Below, piece by piece: positions 1,436 to 48,601 of a stretch of 60,298 nt of DNA (its first letter is position 1; every line of letters begins with the position of its first letter). This DNA is from an uncultured Gammaproteobacteria bacterium (GTDB lineage: Bacteria; Patescibacteriota; Microgenomatia; UBA12405): NCBI GenBank assembly GCA_964558195.1, contig CAZLCB010000001.1, positions 1 to 60,298 on the forward strand, in the 5' to 3' direction. The position numbers and the translations under genes were made by a program. The notes beneath the pieces were generated by a model that saw only the letters and a program-made list of their open reading frames with translations, searched no databases and was not told where the DNA came from.

Positions 1436-1912
1436 ATGAAAAGGGATGGTTTTATGACGTATTCTCTGGAGAATCTCGCCCTACTCGAGAGTTTTATTAA
1501 ACCGATCGCTCGACGGTTGATGAAAATGGATGGAAAGTCCGGCCTTTGGCTGGTACTTTACCAAGGCGATAAGAGCTTGAAATTTGAAGACCTGGAACCG
1601 ATTTACCAACTGGTGATCGGGAAGGCTGGCAAATACGAGAAGATCGCTAAGGCGAAAGCAAGGCCAGCCTGGAGAACGGGTTACTCTAGTGGCGATGCCG
1701 CTGACTGTGATGGGTTTTTCACTGATTCCGGGGATGCTATTTGGAAAGGATCGTCGGTGATAACGGCTGGGGACAACCGCATTGTGGTTTCAGTCTCCGG
1801 TTTAACTGGAATTCATGACGAATACCTGTCGATGGTAACCCTGGACACACTGAGGATGGTCGGCAAAGACGTGATTGATCAGCTTTCAAAGGCTGACGGT
1901 ATTATGCCCTAG
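1436..1912 (+). CDS. Hypothetical protein, compositionally foreign (about 48% GC), possibly GlcG/DUF336-like
   Basis: 158-aa ORF (alternative ATG at 1454). GC counted on four 60-nt blocks is 40-57%, against about 30% in the next gene. The segment IAKAKARPAW...VVSVSGLTGIHDEYL resembles the GlcG/HbpS family pattern (A.AKA..A ... G.SG....DE), recalled from memory. Confidence 0.55.
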   Translation: MKRDGFMTYSLENLALLESFIKPIARRLMKMDGKSGLWLVLYQGDKSLKFEDLEPIYQLVIGKAGKYEKIAKAKARPAWRTGYSSGDAADCDGFFTDSGDAIWKGSSVITAGDNRIVVSVSGLTGIHDEYLSMVTLDTLRMVGKDVIDQLSKADGIMP

Positions 1913-4080: not shown

Positions 4081-5280
4081 TTAGATTTGGAATTGGCCGT
4101 CTTTATATAAAACTATTTTTTTGCCGGATTTGAGAGTAGCAGTAACAGTGCGGTTGGAGGTGGCAATAATGTCGGTGTGAACAGAAGAATCATTGAAACC
4201 TAAATCTTCCCAATCTTTTGGTAATAATTTGTTTAATTTGCCATTGAAAGTATCTTTGTAAGCTGACCCGAGAGCAATGTGAGTATTGCCGAATGGGCCA
4301 CCGAAATTTTCATCATAAAGAGTTTCGGCCATAAATTTGTTGATTTTAGAAAAACGTTTGTCTGTTAACGAAAACTCACCTATTTTGTCACTGTTAGGGG
4401 TTTTAATAAGTTCCTGTAGATATTTTTCACCATAGCCAGCTTCAGACTTAACTACTAAACCGTCTTTAAAAGTTAATTTAATATTTTTGATTAAATTACC
4501 TTGGCGATAAAGAGGTTGATCAAAATAAATATAACCATTGGTACCCCGCCAGTCAGGAGAGGTAAAAATTTCAAAACTAGGAATATTACGACCACCACCA
4601 CCAAGCCATTGGCGATTTTGACCAATAGTAATGTTTAAATCGGTATCTTTGGCTTTAATATTAACTTCAACTATTTCGAGCTTATTTAGTTTTTGACGAA
4701 TTTTATTGCTTTTATTTTGAACTGATTGCCATTTTTTGACTGGGTCGGAATAATTTAAAAAACAGGCTTTAATAACTTGTTGCCAGGCTTGACGTAAAGT
4801 GAGTTTGGCTTCGGTAGCCATGGCAGGGGTGGGAAATAAACCAATTGTCCAAGTTAATTTACCTTTATTTTCCTTGTTATCCCGCCAATCTTTGTAAGGT
4901 TTAAAAACCATGTTTCGCTCCATGATCAGGTGAGGATCAATACCTTCGAGTTCGTGATAATTGGTTTCGGCTAAAACCATAAGAAAATGATCGGCTTCCC
5001 GAACCCGACCTTTCATAAAAGTTGCGGGAAAAAATTTGAGTTGATCTGGTGAAGCTAGTTCATAAAATTCACGCGACATTTCGTCGGGTAAATATTGAAT
5101 GATAGGATGAGCGCCGCTTTTGAGAACCGAACGCTGAAGAGAAACTAATAGAGGCTTGGCAGACTCGGGCACTTGAAGAAAGACAACTTCGCCAGTCCTG
5201 ACACCTTTACCACTATTTAAGGCAAATTTAACCAAAACATCGGCATATTTATCGAGAATTTTTTGAGACGGACAATACAT
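4081..5280 (-). CDS. Aminopeptidase, M29 (AmpS/PepS) family
   Basis: 399 aa. The N-terminus KYADVLVKFALN..KG, NIPSFEIFTSP and GNTHIALGSAY are typical of the M29 family. Confidence 0.8.
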   Translation of the reverse strand: MYCPSQKILDKYADVLVKFALNSGKGVRTGEVVFLQVPESAKPLLVSLQRSVLKSGAHPIIQYLPDEMSREFYELASPDQLKFFPATFMKGRVREADHFLMVLAETNYHELEGIDPHLIMERNMVFKPYKDWRDNKENKGKLTWTIGLFPTPAMATEAKLTLRQAWQQVIKACFLNYSDPVKKWQSVQNKSNKIRQKLNKLEIVEVNIKAKDTDLNITIGQNRQWLGGGGRNIPSFEIFTSPDWRGTNGYIYFDQPLYRQGNLIKNIKLTFKDGLVVKSEAGYGEKYLQELIKTPNSDKIGEFSLTDKRFSKINKFMAETLYDENFGGPFGNTHIALGSAYKDTFNGKLNKLLPKDWEDLGFNDSSVHTDIIATSNRTVTATLKSGKKIVLYKDGQFQI

Positions 5281-22199: not shown

Positions 22200-22270
22200 T
22201 ACCCCATCGTCTAATGGTAGGACACTACGCTCTGAACGTAGTAATTGTGGTTCGAATCCATGTGGGGTAA
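22200..22270 (+). tRNA. tRNA-Gln (anticodon CUG)
   Basis: Hand-folded cloverleaf. Acceptor UACCCCA/UGGGGUA, D stem GUCU/GGAC, anticodon stem CUACG/CGUAG with loop CUCUGAA, T loop UUCGAAU. CCA is not encoded. Confidence 0.9.
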
Positions 22271-22290
22271 CAAAAAAAAACAGTAGTGTT

Positions 22291-22935
22291 TTATTTAGAA
22301 TTTTTATAACAACTCAATATTTCTGGGTATATCAATGGTATTTTTTCTAAAATCTTTAGATCTGATTTCATTTCGTCATTTTTTTTCTTTATTTGATTGG
22401 TCATATCTTCACCTACTCCCAAATTAGTCCACATATCAATGAGATCTTGGGAAATTAATTCATTTTTTTTATAAAGATCAATAAGAATTTGATTGTATTT
22501 TTTTATTAATTCATTTTTTTCATTATTAGGTGTTTCTGTATACTCTAGATGTTTTAAATAATTTTTTATGGGAAATTGAGATACATCGTGCAAATCTTGA
22601 AATATTTTTAAATTTGTTCTTAAAACCCAATGTTCTGGTGATAATTTATTTTTTTCGTCTTTAAAGATATCTAATAAATCAGGAAAAATATATTTGAAAA
22701 CTTTAAATTGGATTTTGTCACAGATTAAATGGACAAACCACCCTTTTTTAAAATCATCATCCTTATAAAAATTATCGTTTAAGAAATTATTACTGTGGGT
22801 TGTCTCTCGATCAATTTTCGTGATATAGCGGCTATCAGGATAAACCGTTCCTGATATATATTCATCAAGATTTTTAATATCAAAATCGTTTTTAACATCC
22901 AGAGCAAACCTGATATGAGTTCCAAGAAGTGCCAT
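22291..22935 (-). CDS. Hypothetical protein (possible metal-dependent hydrolase)
   Basis: 214-aa ORF. Scattered His/Asp motifs (GTHIRFA, YPDSRY, WFVHLICD) are only weakly suggestive. Confidence 0.5.
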   Translation of the reverse strand: MALLGTHIRFALDVKNDFDIKNLDEYISGTVYPDSRYITKIDRETTHSNNFLNDNFYKDDDFKKGWFVHLICDKIQFKVFKYIFPDLLDIFKDEKNKLSPEHWVLRTNLKIFQDLHDVSQFPIKNYLKHLEYTETPNNEKNELIKKYNQILIDLYKKNELISQDLIDMWTNLGVGEDMTNQIKKKNDEMKSDLKILEKIPLIYPEILSCYKNSK

Positions 22936-22975
22936 AATGTTGATTATAACCTAATAATTTTTGGTAGAATAGGTT

Positions 22976-23308
22976 GTGACGCGAATTAAGTTTAAGAGTG
23001 ATAAGTATAAAAAAGTTAGGGGTGGATATTCCAGATTATTAGACATTTCTTGTGCCAGATGCGGACAACATCTGTGTCTTTATCAAAAAGATGGACCGGG
23101 ATTATTGAAGAGAATGTATTTAGATAGAATTTATGAATCGGATAAATATTCTGGGTTAGAAAATAAACCACTGAAATTAATTCCTAATTTAGTTTGTACT
23201 GGCTGTAATCAAATTGTTGGTATTCCTTATATTTATGAACCGGAGAAAAGATTAGCTTTTAGATTGTTTGTGGGTGAAGTATCGAAGAAAATTGTTAAGT
23301 CAAAATAA
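22976..23308 (+). CDS. Hypothetical CxxC...CxxC zinc-ribbon-like protein
   Basis: 110-aa ORF with a GTG start. It contains CARCGQ and CTGCNQ pairs. Confidence 0.5.
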   Translation: MTRIKFKSDKYKKVRGGYSRLLDISCARCGQHLCLYQKDGPGLLKRMYLDRIYESDKYSGLENKPLKLIPNLVCTGCNQIVGIPYIYEPEKRLAFRLFVGEVSKKIVKSK

Positions 23309-23332
23309 TTCAGTAGCGGAGTTTTGATATTT

Positions 23333-23393
23333 AAAAAAAACGAGGCCCAGGATTGTGTTTCGCACGATGCGAATATAAACACAGCCCTAGGCC
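23333..23393 (-). terminator. Long hairpin plus U8 tract, terminator-like on the minus strand
   Basis: 23344-23360 pairs with 23377-23393 over 17 positions. On the minus strand this gives 14 Watson-Crick pairs, 2 G.U and 1 mismatch. An inner ttcgca/tgcgaa stem is present. The A8 run at 23333-23340 reads as U8 three nt after the stem on the minus strand. Confidence 0.55.
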
Positions 23394-24075
23394 AATGGAT
23401 AAGTCGGGAAAGGAAGGGAGAAGGGGTTGCGTTGGTGACGCGTGGAGTGGCTTGCGGGCGATGAGACGCGCGCGAAGCATTTCCTTGGCCCAATGGTTGG
23501 GTCAGAATGATACGAAAGATATTCAGTTTTCGAGTCACACAAGACCAACGGAGACGATCGGCCCGGCGGATTGATCCATGATGGATTACTACCGTGTTGT
23601 TGTGGCGAAGTCGAACGAGTGTGTGTTCCAAGAGAACTTTTCTCGTGTAGACGACGCCGGGCCGAAGAGATGGATTACCATAGTCCCCTTGAGGCTTAAG
23701 TGCATTTCACCTCAGGCGGCTGCCGTCTGCGCCACTGCGCTGTTCGAGGCCTGGGATTTGGGCGGACCGGTGTTGGTGTGTGACATGCTCGAAGCCCCCT
23801 TAGCGTTCAGCCGTGAACTGGGCGTAGGCCTTTGCCTTCGCCGAAGAAACCCCGGGTTACTACTGCATGGGATTGTCCCTTTTGCCTTTGTTGGCCTAAT
23901 GCAGTGAGTTGAGATTCACAACAGCAACTGTGGCGGCATGATGTTGTCTGGAGCGGTCTGACTAGTTCAATGGACTGCCTCCTCTCCTAGGTCGATTCGC
24001 CCCTGTAGTAACGGTTGGCGCGGTCGGACGCGAGGATGCGAGACAAAAATGATTCACCTCTCTTTCCTTTCTAAT
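23344..24075 (+). ncRNA. Candidate large structured ncRNA of unknown class (GC-rich island); strand unresolved
   Basis: Hand count over 23341-24060 gives G 226, C 170, A 152, T 172 (55% GC). No credible ORF is present. There are many helices, including a perfect 10-bp G/C helix (23559-23568 with 23655-23664). G+U excess and G.U-dependent helices favour the plus strand. The hairpin plus U8 at 23333-23393 favours the minus strand. Confidence 0.5.
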
Positions 24076-24185
24076 TGTTCAGGTACAGTGAAAACAATAT
24101 TTATAAAAACGCTATGTTTTTATATAATTTTTTCAATAATAGATGGAGTTTATATCGAACAAGAAATTAATTCAATGGGGAAAAA

Positions 24186-25010
24186 TTAGTTTGAGAATTT
24201 AATATGGGATAAATAGATTTTTTCGAAACCGGAAATAAAACGTTTTTTGGCATCAGGGACGAATTTTTGATAGATAGAAAATAAGCCTAACCATTGGTTT
24301 AAATTTAATTGAGTTGGTTTGAGAGAATTTACTTTTAATTGGTGATTAATTTTTTTGAACTGATCATAGGAAAATATTTTTTTGTAAATTTCAAAAATAT
24401 TGGGCTTCCATTGATTAAAACCAAAAATAATAAAATCACGAAATTGTTGATAATGCGGCAGATCAATTAATGGTTTATTTAGTAAAGTAAATTTGGCAAA
24501 AACTATATTTACTTGAGGCTTGGGGGTAAAAGCAGTCCGATCAATATCACCTAAAATTTCAACAGCAAAAAATGGAGCAGCCAGTATAGCATCTTGATTA
24601 TTAATATCATCGAATAAAGAAAATTTTTCGGCGGCTTCTTGTTGTAAGATTAAATACATTTCGTCTGGCTTATTGGGTGATTTTAGAATTTTATTGATTA
24701 TAGGAGCAGTAATTGAGAAAGGAATATTGGAAAATATTTTATAGGGTGTTTTTGGTAGTGACCATAAAAGAAAATCAGTGTTAATTAATTTAAAATTTTT
24801 ATTTTGAGAAAATCGATCTTGGAGTTCATTAATTAATTGACGATCTTTTTCGATAGCAATGACCTGGCAACCAAAATTTAATAATTTTTGAGTAATAATT
24901 CCCTTACCTGGACCAATTTCGACAACAACATCTCCAGAATTTATTTGACTGGATTGAAGAAGTTGAGAAACAAGTTGGGGTGATTTAATGAAATTTTGGG
25001 AAAAATTCAT
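24186..25010 (-). CDS. Erm-type rRNA adenine N6-methyltransferase (Erm/KsgA family)
   Basis: SQNFIKS start, SAM motif VVEIGPGKGIIT, AIEKD, YKIFSNIPFSIT, and a C-terminal ...YKKIFS..QF...L.LF.IY pattern that tracks ErmC as I recall it. Confidence 0.8.
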   Translation of the reverse strand: MNFSQNFIKSPQLVSQLLQSSQINSGDVVVEIGPGKGIITQKLLNFGCQVIAIEKDRQLINELQDRFSQNKNFKLINTDFLLWSLPKTPYKIFSNIPFSITAPIINKILKSPNKPDEMYLILQQEAAEKFSLFDDINNQDAILAAPFFAVEILGDIDRTAFTPKPQVNIVFAKFTLLNKPLIDLPHYQQFRDFIIFGFNQWKPNIFEIYKKIFSYDQFKKINHQLKVNSLKPTQLNLNQWLGLFSIYQKFVPDAKKRFISGFEKIYLSHIKFSN

Positions 25011-48295: not shown

Positions 48296-48601
48296 AGCCT
48301 TCAGAGAAATTGAAGTGTCTGACCTGACGAAAGCTAACGCAATCTGACGGTAGGAAAGTCCGGACCACAAAAGGTACAGAACCTAAAAATGTAGGGATTT
48401 GGGTAACCAAATGGCAATGCTACAGAGACGAGTAAGCAAGCCGCCTTCGCAAGAAGCTACGGTGAGCCGAAGTGAAACGAGCAACCTTCTGGTGGAAATC
48501 TCAAGTTGAGACATCAATATCTAACCTTTGAGAGTCTCAGGTAGGGAGAATAGATAGATGACACATAAACAGAATCCGGCTTAACAATTTCTTTGAAGGC
48601 T
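48296..48601 (+). ncRNA. rnpB: RNase P RNA, bacterial type A, compact (~306 nt)
   Basis: P1 pairs agccttcagagaaattg with caatttctttgaaggct. The P4 strands GAAAGUCCGGAC and ACAGAAUCCGGCUUA are present. Confidence 0.9.

Follow-up and report, generated by a model that had tools for sequence, protein, structure and literature searches.

A GC-rich, fast-evolving intergenic island beside an Erm-like methyltransferase gene of Candidatus Shapirobacteria as a candidate structured RNA

The island, its neighbours and its relatives

The subject of this study is an intergenic island of 0.73 kb (positions 23341-24075) in a 60,298-nucleotide (nt) stretch of DNA (GenBank assembly GCA_964558195.1, contig CAZLCB010000001.1, positions 1 to 60,298; hereafter, the window), which had been singled out from the sequence as a candidate large structured noncoding RNA (ncRNA) of unrecognised class. 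The island is flanked by convergent genes: a zinc-ribbon open reading frame (ORF) of 110 amino acids (aa) on the plus strand (22976-23308; 31.5% GC) and a gene for an Erm-like methyltransferase of 274 aa on the minus strand (24186-25010; 28.7% GC), from which it is separated by a 110-nt spacer (24076-24185) of 23.6% GC. These values bear out the AT-rich neighbourhood described in the original prediction, and a recount of 23341-24060 (G226, C170, A152, T172; 55.0% GC) agrees exactly with the count made there by hand. Among all 735-nt segments across the 60 kb, the island ranks at the top with a GC fraction of 0.54 (median, 0.348; 99th percentile, 0.436), the runner-up among non-overlapping segments reaching 0.435, and its edges are sharp.

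Genome and metagenome scans place the host within Candidatus Shapirobacteria, a lineage of the candidate phyla radiation (CPR, or Patescibacteria), and an identical copy of the window is found in six Logan contigs. The runs SRR10812145/147/148, ERR3438389, SRR35946792/922/928/932 and SRR30230065 gave contigs that match it fully or almost fully. Many of the closest records (metagenome-assembled genomes marked TPA_asm; loci L007-L028) are labelled "uncultured Gammaproteobacteria bacterium", probably wrongly, given that their genes and synteny match records of Candidatus Shapirobacteria/Parcubacteria.

No protein-coding gene was recognised in the island. Its longest ORF on the plus strand comprises 109 aa (23578-23907), and the longest one on the minus strand, of 132 aa (23233-23631), extends beyond the island; neither matches Pfam. 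The six concatenated reading frames returned no match at E<=0.01 among 5.8 billion proteins, which answers the earlier suggestion of looking for a decayed gene by translated search. Compared with L068, a relative with an 89% identical island, the window displays 69 substitutions and 15 indels, and the 12 short indels inside the island measure 4, 3, 2, 5, 4, 1, 3, 4, 1, 1, 2 and 3 nt. Since 9 of these 12 are not multiples of three, the pattern is that of non-coding sequence, and with no protein similarity either, a protein gene or pseudogene was dismissed, in line with the original view that no real gene is present. The accompanying statement that no ribosome-binding site plus start codon exists holds for the plus strand, whereas on the minus strand canonical Shine-Dalgarno (SD)-plus-start arrangements precede very short ORFs.

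Known RNA families fared no better. With Rfam 15 at the gathering threshold, the whole window yielded RNaseP_arch and two tRNAs only, leaving the island unmatched; at E<=10, the region 23200-24200 gave two chance matches (12-13 bits) and the region 23930-24100 a single one, the permissive scans overall staying at 12-14 bits. GOLLD, ROOL, OLE, HEARO, raiA, transfer-messenger RNA (tmRNA), introns and rRNA are thus excluded as far as their models reach, so that the island indeed belongs to no class covered by the Rfam check proposed along with the original prediction. In the case of tmRNA, ARAGORN found none in the window and no tmRNA clan model matched; one candidate micro-ORF of 24 aa described below does end in AAA followed by a stop codon, but it starts with AUG behind an SD sequence. 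Models of group I and II introns and of small- and large-subunit rRNA gave no match, and the island lies between genes, not inside a host gene. When the island was compared by BLASTN with collections of phage and of plasmid DNA, neither returned a match, and two conserved island motifs scanned in viral contigs gave chance matches only, with no further similarity. A BLASTN search of the island against its own 60-kb window at E<=1 returned only itself, with no second copy or fragment, and a dispersed repeat of the REP, BIME, BOX or MITE type, expected in many copies per genome, was dismissed on this account. Literature searches retrieved no description of a large ncRNA of such kind in CPR bacteria.

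Loci in relatives were found using the adjacent methyltransferase (RrnaAD) as an anchor; the protein scores 209.6 bits against the NCBIfam model Erm23S_rRNA_broad, for which the cut-off is 212. Many relatives, with methyltransferases 64-91% identical, carry on the same side a GC-rich island of 0.3-1.1 kb, which starts approximately 100 nt past the methyltransferase stop codon. We refer to islands that BLASTN can align with that of the window as type A, namely L068 (identical to L069 and L070), L008, L009 (identical to L031 and L032) and L060, the type-A alignment comprising five distinct sequences. The L068 island contains a 286-nt insertion relative to the window, and that of L008 extends over 1.1 kb. 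The remaining islands (L010, L012/L038, L014/L017, L018, L019/L040, L027 and the lower-GC intergenic regions of L020/L036/L037/L042, likewise scored as islands) display no detectable sequence similarity to the window or, mostly, to each other. A type-A profile searched with nhmmer against all fetched loci produced marginal matches only (the terminator hairpin of L014, E=0.024; L012, E=0.29), and homology between the island types should be considered unproven.

Several relatives carry no island. In L007 and L030, whose enzyme is 90% identical, a 96-aa ORF and a 186-aa ORF stand in its place; in L063, an HD-domain gene lies directly downstream of the methyltransferase gene; L062 has a GIY-YIG gene there; and more distant relatives have a LytR-family gene right behind the methyltransferase gene. 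The neighbour on the far side of the island varies as well (zinc-ribbon ORF, 172-aa ORF or 214-aa ORF), whereas the methyltransferase neighbour is constant. Collectively, these observations define the island as a lineage-restricted, dispensable element with a fixed position and orientation relative to the Erm-like gene.

We note that the whole segment from a tRNA-Gln gene (22200-22271), 1.1 kb from the island, to the methyltransferase is a variable region (22200-24186 in the window; compared in L007, L008, L027, L062, L063 and L068). Its contents among the relatives include zinc-ribbon, 214-aa, 172/186-aa, Nudix-like, GIY-YIG, HD, DUF2726 and 96-aa ORFs. On the other side, the Erm-like gene (minus strand) diverges from a pyruvate kinase gene (plus strand), their starts at 25010 and 25013 being only 2 nt apart, and each promoter must consequently sit in the coding sequence of the other gene. 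The same spacing leaves no room for a leader upstream of the Erm-like gene; an Erm leader-peptide attenuator was dismissed, the island lying downstream of the stop codon of the Erm-like gene and not upstream of a coding sequence. In L062 and L063, the methyltransferase gene is instead located behind an NTP-transferase gene in the same orientation.

Folding, selection on pairing and the choice of strand

The island of the window folds into structures with a minimum free energy (MFE) of -282 kcal/mol on the plus strand and -252 kcal/mol on the minus strand, better in both cases than dinucleotide shuffles (z of -2.80 and -4.08, respectively; -2.85 and -4.46 in a repeat with 40 shuffles). The z-scores were negative on both strands in 14 of 14 islands, ranging from -2.3 to -6.1 on the minus strand, compared with +0.3 to +1.4 for three coding sequences and -1.3 and -1.9 for the local RNase P RNA taken as controls. 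When consensus folds of the type-A alignment obtained with RNAalifold were set against column-shuffled alignments, three of the five blocks stood out (plus/minus z of -2.8/-3.2, -6.1/-4.8 and -3.2/-2.4), the other two being close to 0 and not significant.

Selection on pairing was assessed with a permutation test in which the fold is derived from one sequence only and the substitutions of the relative are re-dealt among positions carrying the same base. Helix-breaking substitutions were depleted between L068 and L008 on the minus strand (75 versus 102.9 expected, P=0.000; plus strand, P=0.098), between L068 and the window on both strands (P=0.003 minus, 0.009 plus), and, on the minus strand, also between L036 and L042 (P=0.006; plus, 0.46) and between L020 and L042 (P=0.022; plus, 0.69). 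With the minus-strand MFE structure of the window itself, 20 pairs were broken versus 23.7 expected (P=0.13), and 4 compensatory pairs were found versus 0.67 expected (P=0.004). The compensatory changes between the window and L068 include T-A to C-G and G-C to A-T replacements at 23864/23903 and 23865/23902. These results suggest that base pairing is under purifying selection while sequence and module content turn over rapidly, and the earlier impression of a segment packed with stable helices is borne out by the folding scores, the depletion of helix-breaking substitutions and some compensatory pairs.

As to the strand, base composition is no indicator, because the plus strand has more G than C throughout the 20-28 kb region, whichever way the genes point. 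A more telling feature is found at the end of the island distal to the methyltransferase. In a survey of 11 variants from six island types, read in the methyltransferase orientation, 10 have a terminal hairpin of -23 to -32 kcal/mol (z of -4.7 to -7.3), behind which, at a distance of 0-4 nt, comes a run of 4 to 9 U residues. On the plus strand, an A-run precedes the same hairpin, which would therefore terminate minus-strand transcripts only, and at positions of the terminator stem that would be A.C mismatches if the plus strand were read, the relatives have G.U wobbles on the minus strand. Furthermore, the folding z-score is more negative for the minus than for the plus strand in 12 of the 14 islands, and the permutation test is significant on the minus strand alone in three of the four comparisons given above, and on both strands in that between L068 and the window. 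Judging from these features, the minus strand is probably the RNA strand, and the plus strand implied by the original prediction is the less likely one.

Anatomy and mosaic evolution of the predicted RNA

Followed from its 5' end, the predicted minus-strand RNA would open with an extended SD-like purine tract, UAGAAAGGAAAGAGAGGUGAAUCA (24050..24073, minus strand), and the 7-mer GAAAGGA of this kind is the only one common to 6 of the 8 island types. Close to the 3' end lies a CU-rich, anti-SD-like tract, CCCCUUCUCCCUUCCUUUCCCGACUUA (23400..23430, minus strand). In the consensus fold, the two tracts form the 5' and 3' strands of a closing helix, with 24066..24054 paired to 23419..23407 (12 bp) and 24073..24070 to 23403..23400 (4 bp). 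A windowed duplex test points in the same direction: inside the island of the window, the SD tract pairs best with the CU-rich tract (z of -3.55), and the best partner is the 3' CU-rich segment in essentially every one of the 12 islands scored (z of -2.0 to -4.1), the exception being L008, in which the terminator U-run ranked top. The windowed test was used in place of RNAduplex on long end segments, which proved not to be discriminating. Between the two clamp strands, approximately 20 hairpins would be arranged as exchangeable modules.

Directly behind the CU-rich tract stands the terminator of the window: a long hairpin with a conserved apical UCGCA-N3-UGCGA (23344..23393, minus strand; inverted repeat I1; -28.2 kcal/mol, z of -4.99), then UCG, then a U8 tract read from the sequence (23333..23340, minus strand; A8 on the plus strand). 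A stable GC-rich hairpin followed by a U-run has the form of an intrinsic terminator on the minus strand. A simple terminator scan had missed it, because such a scan requires an unbroken stem that encloses a loop of 3-8 nt.

Several interior elements of the minus strand are recognisable across type A. Two conserved hairpins occupy 23450..23504: the one formed by 23478..23467/23460..23450 contains 2 covarying pairs and still forms in L008, where the sequence differs, and that formed by 23504..23497/23493..23486 is invariant in the window, L068, L008 and L009. A domain closed by a perfect 11-bp helix, UCGGCCCGGCG/CGCCGGGCCGA (23558..23665; inverted repeat I4), is retained in L068, L008 and L060 and corresponds to the block with the strongest consensus-folding scores (z of -6.1 on the plus and -4.8 on the minus strand). 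A further hairpin domain (23859..23909), with the helix 23909..23900/23867..23859, harbours the two fully compensatory pair changes relative to L068.

Upstream of the SD-like tract, and directly 5' of it, is a conserved 15-mer, CUGUACCUGAACAAU on the minus strand (ATTGTTCAGGTACAG on the plus strand; 24074..24088), which is identical in the window, L008 and L009, has one mismatch in L068 (CAUUGUACCUGAACAAU) and is embedded in a variable spacer. On the minus strand it reads CTGT-N8-ACAA, a near-palindrome that may be an operator-like site. In the spacer after the Erm-like stop codon, we also note a candidate minus-strand promoter, TTGAAT-15 nt-TATAAA (24149..24175), a weak manual call. By eye, it can be followed in the window, L071, L008, L031 and L060, with an identical -35 element, a -10 element of the form TATA-A/C-A/T and a spacer of variable sequence; its 15-nt spacing falls outside the 16-18 rule of the promoter scan. 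Promoter-like sites in the same orientation occur just upstream of the islands of L036 (TTGATA-17-TAAAAT), L010 and L018.

The type-A family is a mosaic, in which modules and even single helix arms have been lost at short direct repeats. The window is devoid of the 286-nt module present in L068, L008 and L009, the insertion point lying after 23967, at a direct-repeat junction, ACTAGTTCAATGGA (23962..23974, minus strand), and the junction of the module falls between two copies of ACTAGTNCAAYGGA. L009 is missing approximately 110 nt between two ATGGATTAC repeats and, with it, one arm of the perfect 11-bp helix (23558-23568/23655-23665). L008 has lost the 5' arm of an 18-nt inverted repeat (23534-23551/23767-23784), and L060 the entire block 23430-23550.

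Two candidate micro-ORFs were noted on the minus strand. The 5'-proximal one (23987..24046) starts with UUG at 24046, 7 nt after the SD-like tract, and encodes 19 aa (MSRILASDRANRYYRGEST*). A UUG at the equivalent place opens ORFs of 17-19 aa in L008, L009 and L068, with no conservation of the peptide sequence, and in most island types the 5' SD tract is followed, at a distance of 6-10 nt, by a start codon that heads an ORF of only 4-19 aa, not conserved in sequence. The second (23712..23786), encoding 24 aa (MSHTNTGPPKSQASNSAVAQTAAA*), is preceded by the SD sequence AAGGGGG at 23801..23795. Compared with L068, its body has zero substitutions and a 3-nt in-frame indel, and the stop codon changes from TGA to TAA. 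Its N-terminal NTG motif recurs in SD-preceded ORFs of L012 (56 aa) and L038 (60 aa), and no counterpart of the 24-aa ORF is present in L009, in L060 or in types B, C, E, F and G. The micro-ORF peptides have no homologue among the 5.8 billion proteins, in Pfam or in NCBIfam. The RNA might have a micro-ORF function or a dual function.

Other observations concern the islands as sequences. In L012, positions 4965-5175 approximately (methyltransferase orientation) hold two tandem, near-identical units of about 104 nt with two hairpins each, located upstream of the 56-aa ORF, which has a perfect SD (AAGGAGG-7-ATG). The pentamer CCGAC occurs 26 times in 15 islands read in the methyltransferase orientation, versus 8.7 expected from mononucleotide shuffles, and its complement GTCGG 4 times versus 6.8. 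It is often part of GACCGAC or AACCGACA, and the sites in the window are at 23403 and 24023 (plus-strand coordinates). GTCGG is itself skewed to the plus strand throughout the window (47 versus 26 outside the island), and the CCGAC excess may partly reflect GC skew; given this skew and the mononucleotide-only null, a shared loop motif was considered and left unexplained. The CU-rich end ("GUAGUAAC...hairpin...CACCUC") was also considered as a mimic of the 16S rRNA 3' end or of helix 45, for which no Rfam model gave support. It was further considered whether "GGAAAGA..UGAA" resembles the site that Erm targets in 23S rRNA, but the stretch cannot be told apart from an ordinary extended SD and the idea was dropped.

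Elsewhere in the window, RNase P RNA was found at 48305-48592 on the plus strand, in keeping with its earlier placement at 48.3 kb. Although the host is a CPR bacterium, the best-scoring Rfam model is archaeal (RF00373, matched over its full length, 1-288, with 100.2 bits) rather than bacterial type A or B. The second most GC-rich stretch (1501-1960; 50% GC, G139 versus C90) lies inside a 158-aa ORF (1436-1912, plus strand) with a plausible SD and a terminator-like hairpin at approximately 1940-1995. This ORF matches neither Pfam nor NCBIfam, and the predicted folding of its plus strand is unusually stable for a coding sequence (z of -4.07); the gene may have been acquired horizontally.

Interpretation, rival explanations and significance

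We tentatively favour, at slightly less than an even chance, the view that the island specifies a lineage-restricted, fast-evolving, end-clamped and essentially non-coding structured RNA of about 0.75 kb, encoded on the minus strand and possibly containing micro-ORFs. Such an RNA would share the orientation of the Erm-like gene, the stop codon of which is located approximately 110 nt upstream. It would start with the SD-like purine tract (24073..24050), paired with the CU-rich tract (23430..23400), directly after which the GC hairpin and U8 tract (23393..23333) would serve as intrinsic terminator. Clamp and terminal hairpin would together yield a nuclease-resistant RNA with a masked, ribosome-binding-like 5' tract. 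The RNA might originate from its own promoter in the spacer or as the processed 3' part of the methyltransferase transcript, and it could act as a stabiliser in cis, as an insulator between the convergent genes or as a regulator in trans. Of the original prediction of a large structured ncRNA of unknown class, the non-coding and structured nature and the lack of an assignable family stand; what does not is the breadth, since the family is narrow and fast-evolving, and the strand is likely the opposite one. A giant ornate RNA, in particular, is difficult to reconcile with an element that is confined to a subclade, absent in L007 and L063, variable in size from 0.4 to 1.1 kb and prone to losing modules and helix arms.

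Several observations weigh against the interpretation that we favour. Covariation is not statistically established, because only five distinct sequences can be aligned. The absence of the island from the close relatives L007/L030 and L063 makes it dispensable, and the loss of helix arms in L009 and L008, along with the missing 286-nt module of the window, indicates weak constraint on the overall fold. The promoter scan found no sigma-70-type site on the minus strand in the window. Finally, some of the pairing evidence favours the other strand. Judged by the plus-strand MFE structure of the window, 12 pairs were broken versus 22.7 expected (P<0.0005); several helices, some of them conserved, including the GGCCCAAUGGUUGGGUC hairpin and the clamp of L068, have G.U pairs on the plus strand that correspond to A.C on the minus strand; and across the helices common to both strands, GT(+) outnumbers AC(+) by 12 to 5, an ambiguous count that partly stems from misaligned cells.

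The same figures, together with the lower MFE of the plus strand, speak for a functional plus strand, that is, a structured RNA or a long 3' untranslated region (UTR) continuing from the convergent zinc-ribbon gene, with a CU-rich 3' end resembling the anti-SD tail of 16S rRNA. We regard this as improbable: for the plus strand there is neither a terminator at the far end nor a promoter that convinces, and the terminal hairpin stands behind an A-run instead of in front of a U-run; the gene upstream on that strand is not the same in all genomes, whereas the methyltransferase neighbour is constant; the comparisons of L036 and of L020 with L042 favour the minus strand only; and the excess of G over C on the plus strand, being region-wide, is no evidence of RNA structure. 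If the minus strand is the relevant one, the micro-ORFs raise the prospect of a small-protein locus, in which the 19-aa ORF and the 24-aa NTG ORF would be embedded in very long structured UTRs of an mRNA or of a dual-function RNA akin to RNAIII or SgrS. The canonical SD-plus-start arrangements, present in most types at the 5' SD, point this way, as do the NTG ORF body, unsubstituted relative to L068 where the island averages about 1 substitution per 10 nt, its in-frame indel with a retained stop codon, and the recurrence of the NTG motif behind strong SDs in the otherwise unalignable islands of L012 and L038. However, the ORFs cover only some 10-20% of the island, leaving its 735 nt of GC-rich, paired sequence unexplained, L009, L060 and five types lack the NTG ORF, the 5' peptides are not conserved and no homologues exist in the databases searched. 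The shared "AACACYGGUC" may just as well represent a motif of the RNA (nhmmer E=0.29). We thus assign this possibility a low probability.

There is also a small chance that the island acts purely in cis, as a non-specific array of hairpins at the 3' end of the methyltransferase transcript, which would terminate transcription, block exonucleases or insulate against collisions. REP/BIME and BOX elements are short intergenic hairpin units present in many copies per genome, and the effect would be like theirs: modular hairpin arrays at gene 3' ends and between convergent genes, with module content varying between strains. The position between convergent genes, with a strong terminator abutting the stop codon of the convergent gene, suits this explanation, and so does the way in which modules and arms come and go; dispensability in close relatives and rapid turnover would be accounted for, and the island types share only generic features (GC-richness, pairing, the SD-like tract and the terminator). 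Unlike REP, BIME or BOX, however, the island is locus-specific and single-copy in 60 kb, its 0.4-1.1 kb far exceeds what a terminator or stabiliser needs, and the conserved SD:anti-SD clamp, together with possible promoters of its own, suggests a defined RNA unit. Functionless foreign DNA, such as a decaying GC-rich gene or a mobile-element fragment lodged in the variable region near tRNA-Gln, is very improbable. The locus is hypervariable, with GIY-YIG, HD, Nudix and 96-aa ORFs in relatives and tRNA-Gln only 1.1 kb off, and polarised changes show a slight excess of GC-to-AT over AT-to-GC (11 versus 5, from too few reliable sites); against this, there is no similarity to proteins, phages, plasmids or viral contigs, GC-richness, folding stability and pairing are kept where the flanking protein is only 64-83% identical, substitutions avoid breaking helices, and the position, orientation, SD tract and terminator are fixed.

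The structured, end-clamped minus-strand RNA that we favour has partial counterparts among known systems. With GOLLD, ROOL and OLE, it shares the setting of a long, GC-rich, ORF-poor and strongly folding intergenic region in an AT-rich genome (PMC12286853), but the island matches no covariance model, is restricted to one subclade and a single syntenic locus, and is hypervariable, with losable helix arms. Because modules and arms are freely lost and close relatives do without the island, an intricate and essential tertiary fold of the GOLLD/ROOL/OLE type (PMC12286853) is argued against. The island is best filed among the orphan structured RNAs found as GC-rich intergenic islands, for which a discovery pipeline based on GC-rich intergenic regions (GC-IGR) has been described (PMC6429828, PMC8632094, PMC11109978). 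Pairing between an SD in the 5' UTR and a UCCCC motif in the 3' UTR is known from the icaR mRNA of Staphylococcus aureus (PMC3868564). The island resembles it in having a 3' C/U-rich anti-SD complementary to the 5' SD of the same RNA, a predicted pairing that recurs in the relatives; yet the masked SD of icaR serves a real gene of the 186-aa class, whereas that of the island precedes an ORF of 4-19 aa at most. The Bacillus thuringiensis cry3A mRNA carries the STAB-SD, a 5' stabiliser that binds the 30S subunit and blocks RNase J1 (PMC4113751). Like it, the predicted island RNA would have close to its 5' end an SD-like element that is complementary over an extended stretch to the 3' end of 16S rRNA and need not serve the translation of a real gene. 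The likeness is one of sequence, and in the island the tract may instead be sequestered in the clamp. In dual-function small RNAs such as RNAIII, a series of hairpins that ends in a terminator is combined with C-rich tracts and with an internal micro-ORF of about 25 aa. The predicted island RNA, with its many hairpins, C-rich tract, terminator and micro-ORF of similar length, is of the same general build, but there is no homology and its ORF is not conserved across the family. The C-rich motifs of RNAIII are mentioned in the study of icaR (PMC3868564).

A bolder interpretation, which we consider rather unlikely, is that the islands represent a previously undescribed class of large (0.4-1.1 kb), modular and rapidly diversifying RNAs of CPR bacteria (Shapirobacteria) that engage the ribosome or sense translation as regulators. 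It would draw together the unusually long complement of the 16S rRNA 3' tail at the 5' end, its clamping by an internal anti-SD and the location beside an Erm-like gene, and the hypervariability might then reflect an arms race or adaptation to hosts.

The genomes of CPR bacteria (Patescibacteria) are tiny and leave very little room for DNA that does not code. In this context, a non-coding element of 0.7-1.1 kb, present in one copy, is costly and, because its 50-55% GC content and pairing are maintained against a strong AT mutational bias, presumably useful. Should the island prove to be no more than a cis-acting 3' hairpin array, it would serve as a reminder that not every GC-rich island of an AT-rich genome is an ornate, ribozyme-like RNA. 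A real RNA, on the other hand, would mean a further family of large ncRNAs, from a branch of the tree that has been little explored, and an unusual case of a structured RNA evolving by the shuffling of modules instead of the conservation of a core.

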